Assembly (NCBI GenBank): GCA_965178125.1
Contig: OZ237735.1
Location: forward strand, 558,001-622,000
DNA from: Bilabrum cf. latius
Lineage: Eukaryota
Length of the DNA: 64,000 bases
Direction of reading: 5' to 3'
Within the stretch, counting starts at the first letter, position 1; the number at the start of each line of letters is the position of its first letter. The notes beneath the pieces were generated by a model. That model was given only the letters and a program-made list of their open reading frames with translations, was not told the DNA's origin and made no database searches. Positions 43,323-64,000 of this stretch are shown here, piece after piece. The position numbers were made by a program, and so were the translations under genes.

Positions 43323-43473
43323 TGATGGGATTTTGTGGTCTGTCTATACACAGTCTCTTGGGCTTGCGGAAGATATCATATTTTGGGAGTGATGATTCGG
43401 AGCCTCTGCGTAGATCTTGTGGCGGGTCTTCCAGCCAAACATTCTTAACCCTGGTAGTCAGCAGCGCATTCAA

Positions 43474-45897
43474 ATGTTGGGCACGAACTATTTTTTGGAT
43501 TGGGGCACCACTTCTTTGAGGATTTGGCGGATAAGTCAAAGCTCTGCATCCGAAACTGAGCCAGCCGATATGCAAGTCGCATATCAAGGCCATACTTTTG
43601 ACATAAACTGCGTCTTCCGATCTAGAGAAGGAGTAGGAATGCATAACAACACTGTAGACATGCTTCAAACACTGAGAAAGGCATTCGAAAAAGGAAATGT
43701 GTCACACAATAGAATAATTGCTTCCGGAATGGTAGGCAGCAGCATCGGCTTGGCAAACACGCCCTGCGTAAGCGCTGAGGATTATTTCTCACAGATTCTT
43801 GGTGGTAACCTGAGTAGTGCAGGTAGAATGGACTGCCATGGAATACAGATCGTGATACTTCCTGGTTTGCAAGCGAACAGCGTGGACTCTCTCGGGTTCG
43901 AGCTCATGAGAGGCGAAGAGCTACAAATAGCAGGGTCATTAGAAATGCTTGCCGCAAGTGAAGGCGGCAACACCAGTATGCACCAGTCGTCGCATCTTAT
44001 GGCATTGCCAGGATCGCATTGCAAGTGGGTACGCTTTCGCACGAGGCAAACGGATCCTTCATTTGCTCGGAGTCCCATCATGTCGTGGCGCACTTCAATG
44101 GCGGGGGAAGTCTTTGAGGCATTGCAGCAAGGGACAGTTCTTCGTCACACCATCTCATCTCATGGCAGCCCCGGCTTCAACAAGGCGGATTCGCAGCGCG
44201 GTTTCGATGCAGCAGTACGCGAGACGGCGCTGAAGGTGAGAGCTGGACAGACAACGAACTTCTTGTCGCGGCTGTTTCAGTGCAGGTCAGCAGCAGTGGC
44301 CGATCGAGGCTTGGATGACGAATAGCCACCATCGTCCTCTTTCCTAGGCGGGTATCTCTCTGGCCTCGTTGTCGGGCAGGACGTTGTCGACGGCTGCTTG
44401 GATTCGACGTCGTGCACCACTCCTATAGCGTTTGTTGGAGAGACAGCTCTTTGCGAGCGATACGCACAGGCCTCAAGCATCTTGCACCATGAGGCACCTG
44501 ACATCTTCCACTCCGACCCCGCTGTGAAAGAACCGGTGATAATCGATGCTGGCAAGGCTACCGCAGTCGGCGTCATCCGCGTGCTCGACGGACTTGGAGA
44601 GCTTGAGCTGCCAGAACAGAGAACGACACAAGCACATGGTTCGGCGTCGGTAGTGTCGCCCCGCAAGGACGAATCCAACGAGCCCATGCAGCACCACAGC
44701 CCAGAGAGGGAAGCTCAACCACAGTCAAACCGACCGTTCGAAAATCAACCGTGTCGGCGTTCGGGCATGTGGAACGAGGAAGACGCTCAGGACTTGTGTG
44801 ACCTCGTTCGAGGCGACTGCAGCCGCACACGAGACGCACTGCGCGATACGCTCGACGTGTTTGATCTGGTCAAGACAGCAAAAACACGAGCGCCGAGTCA
44901 TTCAGACGGCACCCCAGCCGCAATTCCACCGGTGCTGCCTGCCATTGCAATCCTCCGCGGGCTACAACCGAACTCGTCCGTTTATAGCAACATCGCACCA
45001 GCCTTGAACGATACACCTTCCTCAAAGGGACTGGATGCAGTCGCGCAGTCGCTGGTCGGAGCTGGCTTTGCGTTTGCAGAGGTCCCACTCAACCGGCCTG
45101 GTGCGTTGAGCGCGATCAGTGAGCTGGCGGCGTCTGCTGGCCGAGTGCAGCTCAAGGCCGCTAACCGCTATGGGTCTGCGAGCTCCGAAGACGCTGATGC
45201 GCCGCTTAGCCAGTGGCAGGAGATGGCTGACTTGCGGAGGCAGTCCTTGACGGAATCACCGATCGCTGGTATCAGCTCTTGCAATCTGCAGGGCACAATA
45301 TCGGACGTCAGATTCAGGAACTAGCGCTGCGCCTTTGGCAAAGGCATACTGAGCGAGAAGGGCGATTGGCAGAAGGCGAGCAGTGAAGCACGCGGATCTT
45401 CCGATACGATACCGCTGTATCCGCTCCTGGTTGGAGCTGGCACCGTGCTCACCAGGGAACAAGCCCTGTCCGCCTTGGGTGCCGGCGCGCGGTTCCTCGT
45501 CAGCCCGTCGTACAGCGAGGCAGTGGCGAAGGTAGCACGGCAAGCGGGCGCAGCCTACGTGCCTGGAGTTTCCTCGGCGACGGAAGCAATCCGTGCGCTC
45601 GAGGGCGAGGCGGCTGCTCTAAAGGTGTTTCCGGCATCGCAATGGAGCCCAGCGGTGCTGAAGGACCTGAGGAGCGCTTCCCCATGCTGCGCCCGGTGGA
45701 TTCCCGTCGGCGGCTTTGGCGATGACTCCAGCAAGTACACGGATTGGATCAAGGCAGGCGCGCACGGTTTTGGGGTGGGGGGTTCCTTGCTGGAGAGCAC
45801 ACACACTTTGGGCAACGTGGCTGCTTTGAACGTCGGGGTTGCCAAAAGAGTGACGAGTGCAATCCGGCTGGCTGTGCGGGCCACCGTATTTCACTAA
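43474..45897 (+). CDS. Fused 2-keto-3-deoxygalactonate kinase (DgoK) and KDPGal/KDPG aldolase (DgoA/Eda family), ~807 aa, intronless
   Basis: DgoK motifs DWGTTSLR, GMVGS, MRGEELQIAG, LPGSHCKWV, YLSGLVVG; aldolase motifs IAILRG, EVPLN, VGAGTVLT, FLVSP, PGVSSATEA, LKVFPA, PVGG. One frame, TAG at 44323 and 45322, TAA stop. Confidence 0.88.
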
Positions 45898-56889: not shown

Positions 56890-58356
56890 TCACCGCTTCC
56901 CTTTTCTGCCCTTTTTCTTGCCCTTCACTTTCTTCTGGCTTTGTTGCTGGCTAACCACCTCCCTGCGTGACGAACCTCCCGCAGACTGCCCCCCGACGGG
57001 GGACCCAGTTGACCGGCTCGTGTCCTCAGCCGCCCCCGCACTCCGTTCCACCGGGCTCGACAGGCCAGCGACCATGCGCCGCAGCTCCACGGCACTTGCG
57101 CCCTTGCGCGCCCGCGCACCCGGGACACTCCCCGGTGAGCTGGATGGCGACCCCCGCGTTGGGGTCCGTCCAAGTGGTGACCCCCGAAGTGGGGTGAGAG
57201 CGGGAGTCGAGCGGCCCCCCCCGTCCCCACCGGGGGACCTAGCCCCACGGCTGGCTGGGCCAGAGCCAATCGAGTGATCAGGTTCTGAGGAGCCAGCAGC
57301 ACCAGCAGCTGCAACAGTGGGGGTGAATCCGGGCGTGGGGGGCCCGTCAGCCATCGGTGACATGGCCCCGGGTACAGAGGCCGAGGAGCCAGCAGCCGGC
57401 GGAGGCGGCTCACCTCTTGCCACCAGTGAGGCGGCCCCGTCACCGCCACCTGCACCTGCACCTGCCGTGCCCGAGGCACGCGTGGCAGCAGGCGGGAGAG
57501 AGGGCATCGTAAGAAGCCCTGATAACACTGGTAACCTCAATTCGGGACCACTCGTCGAGCCGCCAGGCCCCGAGACGCCCGCGAGACGAGCCAGTGCATC
57601 CAGCTCCCTTAGCGCCTGGTGGAATGCCGGCCTCCTATGGGCGGAGCACAGGCGCCATGAAAGAGCGAGCGTCTCCCGCTCGACTCTACCGAGGGATCCA
57701 ACTGTGGACTCCGCGATCTTTCGGGCGGGTGCATCCGGAGAATCTCTGGACGGCAGCCACCAGCGACTCCCTAGCTCCGTCCTTCGAGAGAGGCGGTCTG
57801 CTGGTACCCACGGCAGCGCCGATTGCATCGATTGCTTGATGGCTGACTGTACTTGCAGCAGTGGTCTGCAGCCAGTTGGCCGCTCAAGCAGCAAATTTCC
57901 TGCCAAAGAGGGACTGCAGGCAGGTGCAGTGACTGGGCGTGCGATGCGCTGCCAAGCATCGAGCCCGACGGGCGCGCATGCGGCTGCTGTGTTCACACCT
58001 AGAATGGCAATCGTAGCGAACACAGCTTGCTTTGTTGCAAGATCGTCAAGTAAAGTCTTTGCTACGGCTGATGCGCAGCTTTCAGTCGCAATTCCTAGCG
58101 GTTTGCTTGCCTCCAGTGCTCCGTCGACAGATTCGGACAAACCCTAAAGTACGGAGCTGATTGCGTTCACGTACTCGACCAATGCATCATATAGTCTATC
58201 AAGTCTTTCTTCAGCGCATACTACGGTTTGATTAAGCTTGGCTGGCTCAGCATAGGTGATTGCCGCAATCTCGGAAAGTGCAAGAGTGGCTATATCTACA
58301 CCTGCTCCGGAAACGAAACGCAGAGCTTCTATCAGGGCAGCCCTTGCTCGCGCCAT
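56890..58356 (-). CDS. Hypothetical protein with low-complexity C-terminus and basic tail
   Basis: Two track ORFs joined through TAG at 58144; TGA at 56890. Confidence 0.55.
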
Positions 58357-58569
58357 TATTCATGCATCGCATCCAAATGCTGTAGGCATCACAAATCGAT
58401 GAGAAGTAGTGATGATGAGGCTGCAGGAGCAGTCTCATCATGAGGCTTCTTCCGGTGTTCATCAACAAAGCCGGGGTGTTGGGAGCCAGAGCGTGATACT
58501 GGAGGCGGGAGCCAGTATGTTTTCCTGGTTGTTTTAAACCCGTAATACTTGCAGTACCACGGTGATGCC

Positions 58570-59343
58570 ATGAGCAAGAAGCCAACGAACGAAGAACAGG
58601 ATGCGATTAAGGAATGGAATGCTAGCGTATCTGAATCTACCAAGTACAAGAAGAAGCCATTTCCATGGTCTGCGGCTGCAATTGCAATAAGCGTGCCTCT
58701 GGCTGTAGGGGTAGCGGTAGTCCCGTTCATAGTAATCCCCTGGCTTCCAAAAGCATAGTATGGTGGCTTACCGTTCATGGCCACGAGTCCCAGGCGCGTT
58801 TAGATGATGCTCGAATGGATATCTATGGCCAGGTCTCAGTCAACATCGACCCATCTTGGTGCTGGCGTCAAGGGTGTTGCCGGAACCAAGCGAAGCGTAG
58901 CTGGATTGCGCTTGTCGGACCTAGGCAGCGGCGACGGCGAGGTGGTCGTGCAAGCAGCTCGTGCGGGCATGGTTGCCACAGGGTACGAGCTGAACCCAAG
59001 CCTGGTAGCCATTTCTCGTTTACGATGGTTGCTTGCCCGGGCATCCGCAGAGAAGGGTGGCAGCGCTCGCTTCGTGATAGGGAACCTGCTCGAGGCTGCG
59101 ATTGGAGATGAGGACGTCATCATGGTCTTCGGAGTACCGCCGCTCATGCCCCTGGTGGCTAAGAAGCTGGAACAAGAGGCCAAGGCTGGCGCACTGGTGT
59201 TCTGCCATCGGTTCCCACTGCCTGGATGGACAGCGGTGCAGGAGGGAGACGGCTGCCTGCTCTACAGAGTGCCTCTCGACCCTAGCAGCAGCGAGGAGGC
59301 TGATGCAGGCAAGCAGGAAGAACAGACAGAGGGGAGGCGCTGA
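58570..59343 (+). CDS. FAM173 (ATPSCKMT/ANTKMT)-like mitochondrial lysine methyltransferase
   Basis: N-terminal TM, LPFMATS, DLGSGDGEVV, GYELNP, VFGVPPLM, CHRFPLPGW; TAG at 58756 and 58801; TGA stop. Confidence 0.85.
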
Positions 59344-59480
59344 TTCATCCTATTTTCGGCGCTTAAAGTCTTCACAAGAGCAGTGTCCCGTACGCTCGCA
59401 TTAAATCGGATTCAATACCAAAATGCACGTTTTATTGCATAGGACCCAGGCAAAATCCACAAAACTACCCCGCTTTCGCC

Positions 59481-60839
59481 ATGGCGGACCGTGCTGCCGC
59501 GAATTTTGGAACAGAAAGAGATAGGTAAGAGATATTCGTTTCATTTCTCCTCATTTCCATTTCATTTTGTTGGAATTGTGCTCTAGGCAATGCTCGCTAT
59601 TTCGGCTTGCGCAGGATGAATTGCCCGTACTGGATCAAGATGGGGGCCTGCAGACACGGCGAGACCTGCAACCGCAGGCATGACAAGCCTATCGTCAGCC
59701 ACACGCTCTTGTTGCCTCACATCTACCAGAATCCGAAGGCTGCCATCCGGGCGTCCGGCCGCCGCCCGGAGGACGCCAAGCAGGACAAAATTCGTGACGA
59801 GTTTGAGCACATGTATGAGGATGTATTTACGGAGCTCGGCAAGTATGGCGAGGTGGAAGAGCTCATGGTGGCCGATAACCTGAACGACCACATGGTCGGT
59901 GAGACTACTGCACTCTGTTCCTGGATATCAACAGCCCCTTGATGAAGCCTATCTCGCATCGCTTGCGCTTTGTATTGTGCTTTACTCGCAGGTCATGCTT
60001 ATGTGAAGTACTTCCGCGAAGAGGATGCGATTAAGGCTAGAGATGGGCTTTCCGGCCGTTTCTACGCCGGTAGGCCGATCAACCCAGAGCTCTCTCCCGC
60101 CCAGAGCTTTGCCAGGGCGCGCTGCAGGCAGTATGATCAAGGGCGATGCAACTACGGCTGGATCTGCAATATGGTACACGCGGTGGACGTAGCACCGGGC
60201 CTGGTTCGATTCCTGGACCGCAAGCAGCCGGCCTACGGTAAGAACCCGAGGGGTGGAAGCGGCGCCCGCATGGGCGGAGGGGACAGGGGCAGCGGAGGCG
60301 GGTTTCACCGAGGGGGAGGCAGGGACTGGCGAAGGGACGGAGGCGGCGACCGTGGGGGCGGTGGGTACGATCGGGGAGGCGGGGGCGGGTACGGGCGTGG
60401 GGGCGGGGGCGGGTACGGGCGTGACGACCGAGGCGGGGGCGGGGGTTACGGCCGTGGCGGTGGGGGATACGGCAGGTACGACGACCGCAGGGGCGGCGGG
60501 GACGCCGGTGGCAGGGACTTCCGCCGCGATCTCGACGATCGAAGCCGCAGCGGGGGGGGGTATGGGGGTGGAGGCAGCGGCGGGGGGTACGGTGGGTACA
60601 GCCGGGGGTCCGGCGCACCCACGGGGTACGGCGACAGGGGCAGGGGTGTCCCCGCTGGACCGCGAGATGCCGTGGCGTCGAGTGGGAGCGGTGCCGGGTA
60701 CGGAGGCGCGGCTGGTGCATCCCCATTAAGCTCGGGCCCGCCTCCGGAGAGGTCTTTCGGCGCTGTGGGCGGCAGCTACGGGATGCCTAGAGGTGGGGGG
60801 CCTCCTCCTGCGGGGGGAGGGTACGGTGGAGGACGCTGA
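59481..60839 (+). CDS. U2AF1: Splicing factor U2AF small subunit with RGG-rich tail, three exons
   Basis: FGTERDR|MNCPYWIKMGACRHG, YEDVFTELGKYGEVEE, DNLNDHMVG, GRFYAGRP..ELSP, CRQY; TGA stop. Confidence 0.93.
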
Positions 60840-60975
60840 GGGGTCGGCTGCATTCTGTGCGGAGGAATATTCAAATCAAAAGTCTTGGCAAAATCTGGCA
60901 AGTGCCGGTCAAGCACTCGTAGGGAGTAAACATAGCACACAAAATGCAGACGCTAGCAGTGATCGCAGTGGCTCC

Positions 60976-61113
60976 TTACCCGCTCCTCACCGCGGCCAGT
61001 TCCTTGGCTTTGGCGTGCAGGCGCTTCCTCACGCCAAGGGACAAGCCCGCCACACTGGCGAGTTCCTCAGGCGTCAGAGCTGCCAGAATGGCTGCACTCC
61101 GAATGCCCTCCGC
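60976..61113 (-). CDS. 3' fragment of a host gene with a SAM-like C-terminus, cut off upstream by the virophage
   Basis: Host-like GC; translates AEGIRSAAILAALTPEELASVAGLSLGVRKRLHAKAKELAAVRSG-TAA, resembling the C-terminal helices of a SAM domain. Confidence 0.55.
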   Translation of the reverse strand, partial: AEGIRSAAILAALTPEELASVAGLSLGVRKRLHAKAKELAAVRSG

Positions 61114-61114
61114 C

Positions 61115-61183
61115 TGACGTAGTCCGAAAATAAAATAGGAATATAATGTCATTATATTCCTATTTTATTTTCGGACTACGTCA
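61115..61183. repeat. Perfect palindrome: 34-bp arms around a single central T
   Basis: tgacgtagtccgaaaataaaataggaatataatg-t-cattatattcctattttattttcggactacgtca; arms checked base by base. Confidence 0.95.
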
Positions 61184-61903
61184 CGCATGCTTCACTTTTT
61201 TAATGTGTCCATATATTCACTTTTATTTTTTTATTTATTTATATTTTTTTGTATAATTAAATTTTTTATAAAATAATAATTTTGTTGTAATATATTGAAT
61301 AATTATAATTCGTTACATGCTATACTTTTTATTTTTTTATAATATTTTCGCGGATTAAGATTAAATCAATTTATTGATTTTTATCAAAATTTATTTTTAT
61401 TCGATAGAATGAAAATAATTAAATTCGAAGAATTTAATTTATAAATGGATCATCAAATAATATTTATTATATTTCTATAATTTGTACAATTTGGCGGATG
61501 GCTCACATTTTAAAAAAAGTTCGCCAGAAAGCAGAAAATAAATTTATTTATTTTTTGTTTTCGTTTTTAAGAAATGGAAAAAGCATATTTATTTTATTAT
61601 GGGAATTTTTAAGGGGTTAATCATTAAAATATTTTATTGCTTTATTTATGGCTCTATAATTTGAGTTCATGCATTGGGTCGCTCTCTTCGTTCGCTTAAA
61701 AGTGATATAGTAATAAAAGTTAGAAATAATATTATAATAATTTATTTTAATTAATTTACTGAGAAAGACAATAAAATATTTTTTTTAAATTCTGTCACCA
61801 ATTGAAAAAGTAATACAGATAACTAATAATATTAAATATTAATATATTAATGGAATATAATAATATTTTCAGAATACTTGCCTATTATACTTTTTTTTAG
61901 AAG

Positions 61904-62016
61904 GGTGACAAAAGCGGTGACAAAACGTGATTTTCGAGGTCTCAGGAAATTTTTATTTTTAAAATCATATTTTCTGTAGAGTTCAGAATATTAATTTTGT
62001 CATCGGTTTTGTCATC
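61904..62016. repeat. Two 12-bp-period doublets in inverted orientation
   Basis: GGTGACAAAA at 61904 and 61916; TTTTGTCATC at 61995 and 62007; the 22-mers are 19/22 reverse-complementary. Confidence 0.75.
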
Positions 62017-62420
62017 AAAAAATTACAATTTATTAAAGGTGATGCTTAATTTTAAATTGGAGCTGTAATTTTGCATTTAACTCTTCGAATGTGTCATAAA
62101 CATATATTTGAGAGGGTAAAATAAAAATATAAAATCAGGAACAAATCGCGACAAATTATATATTTTCTGAATTGTCACGAGCTGGAGAACACAAAAATCA
62201 TATTTATAAGTTACGTGCATTTTTATTTTAAAAGTTAAAAATTAAAAGCTATATAGATACACACTCAAAAGCATGTAGATATATATAAAACAATGTCTGG
62301 CTAACATGAACAACTCAAAAACAATTGACACATACACTCCAAGGCTATTAAATCCCTATATCGTATCTATATAATTATACACAAGAAAAAAAAAAGCGAA
62401 AATAAAAACTATATATTTTT

Positions 62421-62424
62421 TCTA
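62421..62424 (+). promoter_or_regulatory. TCTA late-promoter motif (CroV/mavirus type) upstream of penton
   Basis: TTTTTTCTAA in AT-rich context, 13 nt before ATG 62438. Confidence 0.75.
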
Positions 62425-62437
62425 ACTATATAATATT

Positions 62438-63328
62438 ATGAGTCGTAATATTTATTTAACTGGACAATCCAGTGGAGCAAATGGGGCAGCTTCAATTGCT
62501 CGTGTAAATGTAAATAGACAAACAGATATTATAAGTGATACTACGGGATGGTTAATTTCAGTAGAACGCTTAATTATGAATAAAATTCTTCTACCCTTAT
62601 TTGATCCAAACGCAAATAAACCCACTATATCATTTCAAAATATTAGTTCTGGTGTCGTAACTTCTGAGGTTGTTGATTTTTCGGCATTTGATGACCAAGA
62701 CGGATATATTTATGATTATAGAGATGTCGCCTCGGCAATATCAAATACATTTAGTTCTTTATGTTCAACTTTAAGTATTGCAGATGTTCCCATAATGACA
62801 TTTAATGTATCAACAAATAAATTTGAAATTGTTTCGGTTGGTGCTTTTAGATCTGCTTGGAAAATTGGATTTAATAATGATCTATTTACTTACATGCCAT
62901 CTTTTAATTATGAATCTGTTTTATCATCTCCTTATTATATTGAACTGGCAGAAGACAGAGAAACACAATATACAAGCACACTTGAGCTTATGTCCCCTGT
63001 TTCTAGAATTGTAATTAAATCGAATCTACCAACTGAAAACGAACTTTTACCTCCCCCAATTAACCAATCTGATGCAATCGCTGGATCTTCAGACAGTGCG
63101 GGTTTTCTAGTCGACTTTGATGTCCAACAGTCGAATAATCAGTCTGTTTCACTTATAAAATATAGTGCAAGAGATACTGACCATATATGGCACAATTTTA
63201 AAGAGTCTAGAAATATTAATTCATTCTATCTAGATTTTTATTGGTTTGACTATAATAATGTTGGTCATCCAATCGCATTAAATAAAAATTCACAAATTGA
63301 TATAAAATTATATTTTGTACAACAATAA
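62438..63328 (+). CDS. Virophage minor capsid protein (penton, mavirus MV17-like), 296 aa
   Basis: KILLPLF, VDFSAFDDQDGYIYDY.DV, KFEI, ETQ..STLE..SP.S.IVI, ELLP, DY.N..HP; matches the mavirus penton as I recall it; ends TAA-TAA. Confidence 0.88.
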   Translation: MSRNIYLTGQSSGANGAASIARVNVNRQTDIISDTTGWLISVERLIMNKILLPLFDPNANKPTISFQNISSGVVTSEVVDFSAFDDQDGYIYDYRDVASAISNTFSSLCSTLSIADVPIMTFNVSTNKFEIVSVGAFRSAWKIGFNNDLFTYMPSFNYESVLSSPYYIELAEDRETQYTSTLELMSPVSRIVIKSNLPTENELLPPPINQSDAIAGSSDSAGFLVDFDVQQSNNQSVSLIKYSARDTDHIWHNFKESRNINSFYLDFYWFDYNNVGHPIALNKNSQIDIKLYFVQQ

Positions 63329-63381
63329 TAAAAATAATATAAGTTTTAATAATCAATTAGACAAAAATATAATAATTTTTT

Positions 63382-63385
63382 TCTA
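63382..63385 (+). promoter_or_regulatory. TCTA late-promoter motif upstream of MCP
   Basis: TTTTTTCTAA, 13 nt before ATG 63399, same spacing as at the penton. Confidence 0.75.
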
Positions 63386-63398
63386 ATGTTAATTTATT

Positions 63399-64000
63399 AT
63401 GTCAAAATACTATAAAGATGTGGTCGTTATGATGCCATCAAACGAGAAATTTAAAGAGCCAAAAGACGTGATGTTAGGGGCAAGAGCCTCTAATTCTGAG
63501 TCTATAAGACGTGTTATTCCAGCCAGTAATGGCTCACCTGATAAAGGTCAAGCAGGAACAATTGAATTTAATTATAATTTCCCTAAGGGTGTGCAATCTG
63601 TGCCACAACTTCAGGCAGAGCTCACATTGACATTAAGAAAAATTAATAGCGAGGTGATTGCCGATAATAAAGCGTTATTTGGTAAATTCGGAATTAGACA
63701 ATTCGCATTAAATAGACTTATTGATAATGCCAAGGTAGAAATGAATGGGCACGAGTTCAGCTCCAGACCATCACAAACAACAGAGTGTTTTGTAAATTCT
63801 CAACCATTGTCTCAATTGATGCGTTTGTCTGATGCTCCAGCTGGTCAATTTATGACTACCTACACAGATAAATTTATTAATAACTCATTGCGTGAGGGTG
63901 CAAATGCTGTTGATACCGTTTCATCTAACGGGCTCGGGAATAACTGGACTTTCTCAGATGTTGCAGTTACTGCAGATGGTGCAGGTTTTGTAAAAGTTGC
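63399..64000 (+). CDS. Virophage major capsid protein (mavirus MV18-like), first ~200 aa; not in the ORF track
   Basis: MSKYYKDVVVMMP.. open to window end; GIRQFALNRLIDNAKVEMNGHEFSSRPSQ and NNSLREG..SNGLGNNW resemble the mavirus MCP N-terminal region; directly follows the penton. Confidence 0.85.
   Translation, partial: MSKYYKDVVVMMPSNEKFKEPKDVMLGARASNSESIRRVIPASNGSPDKGQAGTIEFNYNFPKGVQSVPQLQAELTLTLRKINSEVIADNKALFGKFGIRQFALNRLIDNAKVEMNGHEFSSRPSQTTECFVNSQPLSQLMRLSDAPAGQFMTTYTDKFINNSLREGANAVDTVSSNGLGNNWTFSDVAVTADGAGFVKV

Follow-up and report, generated by a model that had tools for sequence, protein, structure and literature searches.

Virophages are viruses that parasitize giant viruses. At the right-hand end of a 64,000-nt stretch of contig OZ237735.1 (positions 558,001 to 622,000 of the forward strand; hereafter the window, whose own numbering is used throughout), positions 61115-64000 hold what we consider, with a probability of about 0.9, to be a mavirus-like virophage, seen at its left end and inserted into the nuclear DNA of a stramenopile related to, and distinct from, Cafeteria burkhardae. 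We base this reading on the homology of both capsid proteins to those of mavirus, on TG...CA termini with a 5-bp target-site duplication, on junction k-mers in short-read contigs, and on a penton gene placed directly before the major capsid protein (MCP) gene.

The window is eukaryotic nuclear DNA with a sharp boundary in composition. The host part (1-61114) has 59.1% GC and the element part (61115-64000) 28.3%; in 500-nt windows, GC content falls from 0.67-0.77 (60000-60999) to 0.19-0.30 (61000-62749) and then stays low to the end of the window. As the initial annotation had described, this AT-rich island begins with TG, its first base being 61115, where the element opens TGACGTAGTCC... immediately after host ...CCCTCCGCC. 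A 1-kb GC profile across the 64-kb window showed no second island of this kind. Host DNA flanks the island on the left within the window, and on the right as letters of a short-read contig only.

Capsid genes of the mavirus type

In a plain sequence search of solved structures, the first open reading frame (ORF) of the element, 296 aa long, matched the mavirus penton (PDB model 6G41, and also 6G42) with an E value of 2.3e-45, residues 12-293 aligning with residues 22-303 of 307 (282 residues). It is thus homologous to mavirus MV17 over nearly its full length. Because it aligns end to end with four database relatives of 296-300 aa, we regard the gene as intact, in agreement with the initial annotation. 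In a collection of 5.8 billion proteins, four penton relatives were found among 835 scored candidates (82, 53, 43, and 39% identity), and an exhaustive HMMER scan across 1.84 billion cluster representatives retrieved 73 relatives at E ≤ 1e-3, 21 of them at E ≤ 1e-30. In a FastTree phylogeny of 49 rows (the window, P0001-P0004, members of P0127-P0171 of 250-340 aa, and the metagenomic loci L001 and L003), the window paired with P0001 (support 99) inside a five-row clade (99) that also held two metagenomic loci and P0002. A short-motif search found no mavirus penton among the fetched penton relatives, and the tree therefore has no named anchor. Three longer proteins appeared in the same scan: P0162 (7,101 aa) contains 10 stretches resembling penton residues 136-171, the best at 44% identity, and comparably P0186 has 6 stretches in 1,335 aa and P0195 has 5 in 519 aa. 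These may be repeat proteins that borrowed a penton segment, or low-complexity chance matches.

Downstream on the same strand, after a spacer of 70 nt (penton at 62438-63328, MCP from 63399), lies the start of the MCP gene. Its 200 visible residues matched the N terminus of the mavirus MCP (6G43-6G45; E 2-3e-10) in the same kind of search, and over these residues it is homologous to the virophage double-jelly-roll protein MV18, with the C-terminal two thirds lying beyond the window. Among 1,473 candidates in the 5.8-billion-protein collection, the fragment had two longer relatives, at 66% and 46% identity. The closer one, P0005, is 613 aa long and carries the Pfam domain MCP_V20_C, which was present in all four full-length MCP relatives tested. 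Neither Pfam nor PHROGs returned a family for the penton ORF or for the MCP fragment; capsid homology therefore rests on the searches against solved structures, with matches to 6G41 and 6G43/6G45, and on the relatives that carry MCP_V20_C, and on these grounds it is supported. The initial annotation had described a virophage MCP clearly diverged from that of mavirus, and both the homology and the strong divergence (E 2e-10) are evident in the visible part, the first 200 codons.

Logan contigs of four public runs were compared with positions 58000-64000; runs X1 to X4 come from one study, and X5 from another organism and study. In contigs of X1, X4, and X5, CAA is inserted after 63589, giving Gly-Asn-Val as in the metagenomic relative L001, and an A run at 62386 is one A shorter than in the window. 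Either one MCP codon is missing from the window copy, or its assembly contains errors here.

An alternative hypothesis is that the element is a Maverick/Polinton transposon or a polinton-like virus (PLV) instead of a virophage. The general architecture would be the same (terminal inverted repeats [TIRs], a short target-site duplication, and ends of the retroviral integrase [rve] type), and the replication and integration genes that distinguish the groups lie beyond the window. However, plain sequence searches connect both capsid proteins directly to mavirus, and their relatives carry the virophage domain MCP_V20_C. According to the available text of Bellas et al. (PMC10120064), virophage MCPs cluster without detectable similarity to those of PLVs and Polintons at a BLASTP threshold of 1e-4. 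The capsid genes here are of the virophage (mavirus) type, and the duplication measures 5 bp, compared to 6 bp for Polintons. We regard a Polinton or PLV as very improbable.

Termini and integration into a host gene

The host sequence immediately before the element ends in CCGCC. On the left, a 14,242-nt contig of X1 runs through the host into the element up to position 61143, 29 nt inside, and the next contig resumes at 61155. On the right, a contig of X4 matches 61155-61184 (...GGACTACGTCA plus C) and then continues into at least 255 GC-rich letters starting CGCCTCGAG...; past the opposite terminus, ...GGACTACGTCA, it reads on as CCGCCTCGAG... At the opposite terminus, CCGCC comes directly after the closing ...GTCA; because these five bases also stand before the left terminus, the element has TG...CA ends with a 5-bp target-site duplication. 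This is a footprint of the rve type, with TG at 61115, CA at the other terminus, and CCGCC on both sides, the right side being read from one short-read contig. The reverse complement of the right flank extends a minus-strand host ORF ending at 60976 by 10 stop-free codons (frame read by eye), and the right-flank sequence was not found elsewhere in the window. Among endogenous mavirus-like elements (EMALEs), target-site duplications are mostly 3-6 bp and GC-rich (PMC8547959, supplementary file 1), and 13 of 29 insertion sites lie in exons (PMC8547959). From the sequence, insertion into the host ORF looks real. The interrupted ORF itself has a weak HhH_5-like Pfam match below the cutoff (E 0.02).

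The first 69 nt of the element form a perfect palindrome that adjoins the target-site duplication directly. As single-stranded DNA it folds at -34.6 kcal/mol (z = -14.8), and none of 200 shuffled sequences folds as well. A 21-mer from it occurs in the 64 kb on its two arms only, and the terminal 21-mer had no match in IMG/VR. The contigs of X1 and X4 break within it, at 61143 and 61155, as a true palindrome longer than k-1 would make them do at k = 31. Two further leads on the palindrome were discarded: symmetric loose ends of variants in X4 (61128 and 61170), which had suggested covariation, may be one contig in both orientations, and two Rfam matches to microRNA precursors are produced by the hairpin and fall below threshold (35.3 bits against a gathering score of 100, and 20.1 against 83).

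If free virophage DNA from the culture or sample had been misjoined to a host contig, the junction would be an assembly chimera, a possibility that the initial annotation had raised. Depth in X1 differs between element contigs (about 100-111) and host (39), and X5 has the virophage part without the host part, as such an error would allow; summed contig depth is, however, not copy number. In contrast to what a chimera would produce, a de Bruijn short-read contig carries host sequence directly into the terminal 29 nt, and in a second contig the other terminus is followed by the same five duplicated bases and a flank that continues the reading frame of the interrupted host ORF. Neither is expected of a misjoin, and we regard a chimera as extremely improbable.

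Promoter-like motifs and a putative route to reactivation

Both capsid genes are preceded at the same distance by the motif TTTTTTCTAA, whose letters suggest a match to the description of the mavirus/CroV late promoter. Across the 2,886 nt of the element part, the 8-mer TTTTCTAA has two plus-strand copies and none on the minus strand. The two copies are equally far from the only two gene starts, and the chance expectation, estimated from base composition, is about 0.3 per strand. Metagenomic relatives have TTTTCT[AG] 15-19 nt upstream of several gene starts. Among EMALEs, a TCTA-type promoter motif has been reported for type 4 only (PMC8547959), and the same is true of a response to CroV (Koslova et al., PMC10945749). 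No RNA run is listed for the element part, and the run with spliced host transcripts, X6, reaches only to 61049.

We infer that the element was inserted by its own rve integrase, which would be encoded beyond the window, in the way that mavirus and EMALEs integrate. It would then remain unexpressed in its host until the TCTA promoters are recognized by a giant virus whose late transcription machinery resembles that of CroV, and this recognition would switch on capsid production. The terminal palindrome might act as a hairpin that primes DNA synthesis after excision, or as a doubled integrase-binding end, and the 1.3-kb noncoding stretch between it and the penton gene would be all or part of a TIR with iteron-like sites.

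The host

Placement of the host relies on COX15, encoded in the window. Of 1,691 matches among 8,000 scored, the best 120 were listed; among these, two relatives share 97% and 84% identity and all others 56% or less, the best named match being Cafeteria roenbergensis at 54%. In a FastTree phylogeny of 46 rows (the window and 45 of the 120 listed matches: P0007-P0039 and 12 rows with names or source labels), the window shared a set with Cafeteria (support 97), which Hondaea joined next (96); Ostreococcus, Pleodorina, and Astrephomene lay outside it. The host is distinct from C. burkhardae, with a COX15 54% identical to the Cafeteria protein and a GC content of 59% compared to about 70%. By this one gene, it is probably another bigyran stramenopile. 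Two candidate hosts were rejected: Tetraselmis (58% GC), for which no MMETSP protein was more than 50% identical to COX15 and which the tree would not accommodate, as it separates the window from green algae, and Halocafeteria, at 46.8% GC compared to 59%.

Several points weigh against an integrated virophage in such a host. The window holds 2.9 kb of the element, and any genes for an FtsK/HerA packaging ATPase, a cysteine protease, MV14, an integrase, and replication, as well as the other TIR, would lie beyond base 64000. The host-side contig contains 29 nt and the right-flank contig 30 nt of the element, both below a 31-letter bridging rule, because the palindrome forces breaks at k = 31. 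Runs X1 to X4 may derive from the source sample of the window itself and would then lend no independent biological support. The right flank was assigned by five matching nucleotides and 10 codons without a stop, and could in principle belong to another copy. By itself, TCTA is frequent in the element part (16 on the plus strand, 17 on the minus strand), and only two genes could be examined for it. Finally, placement of the host depends on a single gene and on a rapidly built tree in which few rows carry names, and Chlorophyta is the commonest phylum in the nearest, very broad COX15 cluster of a protein atlas.

Gene order and the noncoding terminal region

The initial annotation pointed to a penton as first gene, in an order unlike that of mavirus, and this is what the sequence holds: no ATPase or protease gene precedes the penton, which is the first gene after the terminal noncoding region. 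As a novelty the altered order did not stand, since gene orders unlike mavirus have been published for EMALE types outside 4-7, including the low-GC types 1-3 (PMC8547959, Hackl et al. 2021). Penton directly before MCP is found in every EMALE (PMC8547959). A new virophage type, also proposed initially, is plausible at the level of sequence divergence, identity to the closest relative found being 82% for the penton and 66% for the MCP.

Two readings remain for the penton-first order: a distinct architecture, or a truncated or rearranged derivative whose ancestor lost the genes upstream of the penton and whose terminal repeat was regenerated, as has been reported for some EMALEs. In the latter case the penton would be first by accident and the element perhaps nonautonomous. 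Variant contigs in reads of the same organism share the penton side and diverge to the left at 61902, 62027, and 62150, X5 diverges left of 62221, and wherever a metagenomic relative extends upstream of the penton (L001, L002, and L003, three of three), an ORF immediately precedes that gene, ending about 20 nt before it in L001 and L002. By eye, this ORF in L001 and L002 resembles a His/Asp/Cys protease, an identification that was rejected because neither Pfam nor PDB searches support it. However, gene order varies among EMALE types, and the variant contigs may equally represent the other TIR copy or other element types. The ends also look functional, with a perfect palindrome, TG/CA, and a target-site duplication, and the penton ORF and both promoter motifs are intact. 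We consider a derivative unlikely but a serious alternative.

The 1.3 kb between terminus and penton had been described as noncoding, and the searches agree. The longest ORFs with an ATG in 61184-62437 are 47 aa (62077-62220, minus strand) and 40 aa (61498-61620, plus strand), and no remnants of capsid-flanking genes were found by tblastn with six neighboring ORFs of relatives, which gave one 15-residue match (E 0.095). This region of 1.32 kb is probably a TIR or part of one. In one X4 contig, the final 30 nt of the opposite terminus are the inverse of the first 30 nt; given the palindrome spanning the first 69 nt, this is uninformative on how long the TIR is. Depth was likewise rejected as a gauge of TIR length or copy number: noncoding sequence has about 1.8 times the depth of coding sequence in X1 and about 0.9 times in X4, and summed contig depth is not copy number.

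Within the region, two doublets of short sites face each other across 69 nt. Of all matches to G[GA]TGACAAAA in the window with at most one mismatch, five of seven fall within 61790-62016 (the two doublets and one further site), while at up to two mismatches there is no overall enrichment (41 found compared to 42.7 expected). We regard the doublets as candidate protein-binding sites of an iteron-like kind. To the left and to the right of this block (61790-62016), variant contigs of X1 depart from the window sequence, and the block is therefore common to the variants. One X1 contig passes straight from 61442 to 61588 and thus lacks 145 nt of noncoding sequence, a deletion that belongs either to a further copy or to the terminal repeat at the other end. 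Coordinates of all features are given in Table 1.

Table 1. Features at and around the left end of the integrated element (window coordinates)
Feature	Position	Strand	Remarks
Host ORF interrupted by the insertion	60976..61114	-	last 46 codons and stop
Left copy of the 5-bp target-site duplication, CCGCC	61110..61114		window sequence
Terminal perfect palindrome, 34 + 1 + 34 nt	61115..61183		starts TG, ends CA; hairpin-capable
Noncoding terminal region, 1.32 kb	61115..62437		about 20-27% GC
Doublet of GGTGACAAAA sites, 12 nt apart	61904..61925	+	two exact matches; iteron-like candidate protein-binding site
Inverted doublet of GATGACAAAA sites, 12 nt apart	61995..62016	-	two 1-mismatch matches; faces first doublet across 69 nt
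Promoter-like motif TTTTTTCTAA	62416..62425	+	TCTA 17 nt before penton ATG
Penton (minor capsid) gene, 296 aa, intact	62438..63328	+	mavirus penton 6G41
Second copy of promoter-like motif TTTTTTCTAA	63377..63386	+	TCTA 17 nt before MCP ATG
MCP gene, first 200 codons visible	63399..64000	+	ORF 63399-63998, runs off window

Relatives and distribution

The closest relatives of the penton (P0001) and of the MCP (P0005) each lie on a contig of 10,441 nt, and P0006 lies on one of 18,691 nt. Outside the study that produced X1 to X4, X5 contains a 1,775-nt contig, at depth 2.9, that shows 10 differences and 4 gaps against 62221-63963 (about 99% identity) and diverges left of 62221; the host locus is absent from this run. 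Such a copy fits a mobile or shared virophage, the alternative being low-level carry-over. Searches of IMG/VR for related complete genomes matched 7 stretches, of which 2 were confirmed and none yielded a locus; a second search matched 63 stretches and one with the MCP alignment 89, with none confirmed in either. The GenBank phage collection gave no tblastn match.

Like the window, the metagenomic relatives have a penton next to an MCP gene. Penton identity is 49-58% for L001-L004 and 82% for P0001, and the MCP N terminus is 66% identical in P0005. In contrast to the window, L001-L003 have an ORF directly upstream of the penton, and L001 and L002 appear to read TAG as a sense codon, whereas the two genes of the window contain no in-frame stop. 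In L001:1-2802 and L002:1-2050 (penton 57-58% identical), in-frame TAG occurs at the same places in three consecutive genes, which end in TAA or TGA, and the TAG of the penton gene aligns with Q177 of the window protein. This suggests a host or virus code in which TAG is sense. Two short database entries, P0127 (177 aa) and P0139 (107 aa), look like a TAG-containing penton split by gene callers. Downstream of the MCP gene, L003:4013-5788 encodes a protein of 591 aa whose Peptidase_S74 (endosialidase chaperone) domain is typical of fiber or spike proteins that cleave themselves, and L004 encodes a protein with a similar N terminus in the same position.

Host genes in the window

The host part of the window encodes COX15, an ABC transporter, a RabGAP-TBC protein, a protein kinase, Rcd1, a KDPG-pathway pair, a bromodomain protein, CAF1, and a U2AF-like zinc-finger protein. 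The gene for the last of these, resembling the U2AF small subunit (59469-60839, plus strand), encodes CCCH zinc fingers and a Gly/Arg/Tyr-rich tail; a spliced contig of X6 reveals two GT..AG introns (59523-59612 and 59898-59990), and contig depth over its Gly-rich repeat (60211-60411) is 6-18 times that of its neighbors in X4 and X1. At 43414-45894 (plus strand), adjoining ORFs encode 2-keto-3-deoxy-galactonokinase (DGOK) and KDPG/KHG aldolase, so that this eukaryotic genome has a De Ley-Doudoroff pair of bacterial style as direct neighbors.

Comparison with known virophages and implications

Like the low-GC EMALEs of C. burkhardae (types 1-4; PMC8547959), the element forms a low-GC island in a GC-rich stramenopile genome, carries a mavirus-type penton directly before the MCP gene, is inserted into a host exon with a short GC-rich target-site duplication, and has a long noncoding terminal region (1.32 kb here; EMALE TIRs span 0.2-2.3 kb, PMC8547959). 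It differs in that its visible part has 28.3% GC compared to 29.7-38.5% for whole low-GC EMALEs (PMC8547959), and in that it carries the TCTA-type motif known from type 4 only, yet has a penton only distantly similar to that of mavirus, a type-4 member. Comparing by description, the main text of PMC8547959 mentions no terminal palindrome, which is present here. By COX15 and host GC content, the element falls outside EMALE types 1-8 in the strict sense, which have C. burkhardae as host.

Mavirus itself (6G41-6G45) resembles the element in its capsid proteins, penton and MCP both being homologous, in the TCTA promoter-like motif upstream of late genes, and in TG...CA-type ends with a duplication, 5-6 bp long in mavirus (as cited in PMC8547959) and 5 bp here. 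In contrast, MV14, ATPase, and PRO precede PEN and MCP in mavirus, where here the penton comes first, and the capsid proteins have strongly diverged, the MCP N terminus matching at an E value of only 2e-10.

The terminal palindrome is a feature of a published kind, judging by the available part of Haro et al. 2026 (bioRxiv 10.64898/2026.07.28.741278). There, terminal palindromes adjoining target-site duplications are described in virophages of Halocafeteria seosinensis, together with a hairpin-priming model, and are preferentially linked to non-pPolB replication genes. At 61115-61183, directly after CCGCC, the window has such a palindrome at the very end of the putative TIR, 69 nt long compared to 52 nt in their subtype 5. 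Hairpins and palindromes go unmentioned in the main texts of both Cafeteria papers and of the 2026 pPolB-mining paper. As far as the same part of Haro et al. goes, the Halocafeteria virophages also have a bigyran host and promoter motifs like those of CroV late genes, and differ in a host genome of 46.8-48% GC and in MCPs that form a host-specific clade. Should the reported correlation extend to the element described here, it predicts a non-pPolB replicase in the part beyond the window.

The literature thus already covers variation in gene order, short target-site duplications, insertion into exons, promoter motifs like those of CroV, and terminal palindromes, and what is new here is an example in a new host. 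Endogenous virophages are now known from many protists, according to the available text of PMC10120064, and the present finding leaves the picture of what such elements are unchanged. Inducible antiviral defense by endogenous virophages has been proposed, with experimental proof only for type-4 EMALEs of C. burkhardae with CroV (PMC10945749). The insertion looks recent, with its perfect palindrome, exact target-site duplication, intact penton gene, and CroV-like promoter motifs.

A bolder proposal, which we put forward tentatively and consider doubtful, is that the element represents a separate mavirus-like virophage lineage in an unstudied relative of Cafeteria, currently mobile in view of the near-identical copy in X5, combining promoters of the CroV late type with hairpin-forming termini and replicating by hairpin priming instead of protein priming. 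If true, it would offer a second tractable system of host, virophage, and giant virus and a test bed for the hairpin-priming model. As a locus with both junction sequences known, the insertion can be used to study reactivation, allele polymorphism, and the role of the terminal hairpin. Lying as it does in a different, related host, it extends the association between virophages and their hosts beyond C. burkhardae and Halocafeteria.

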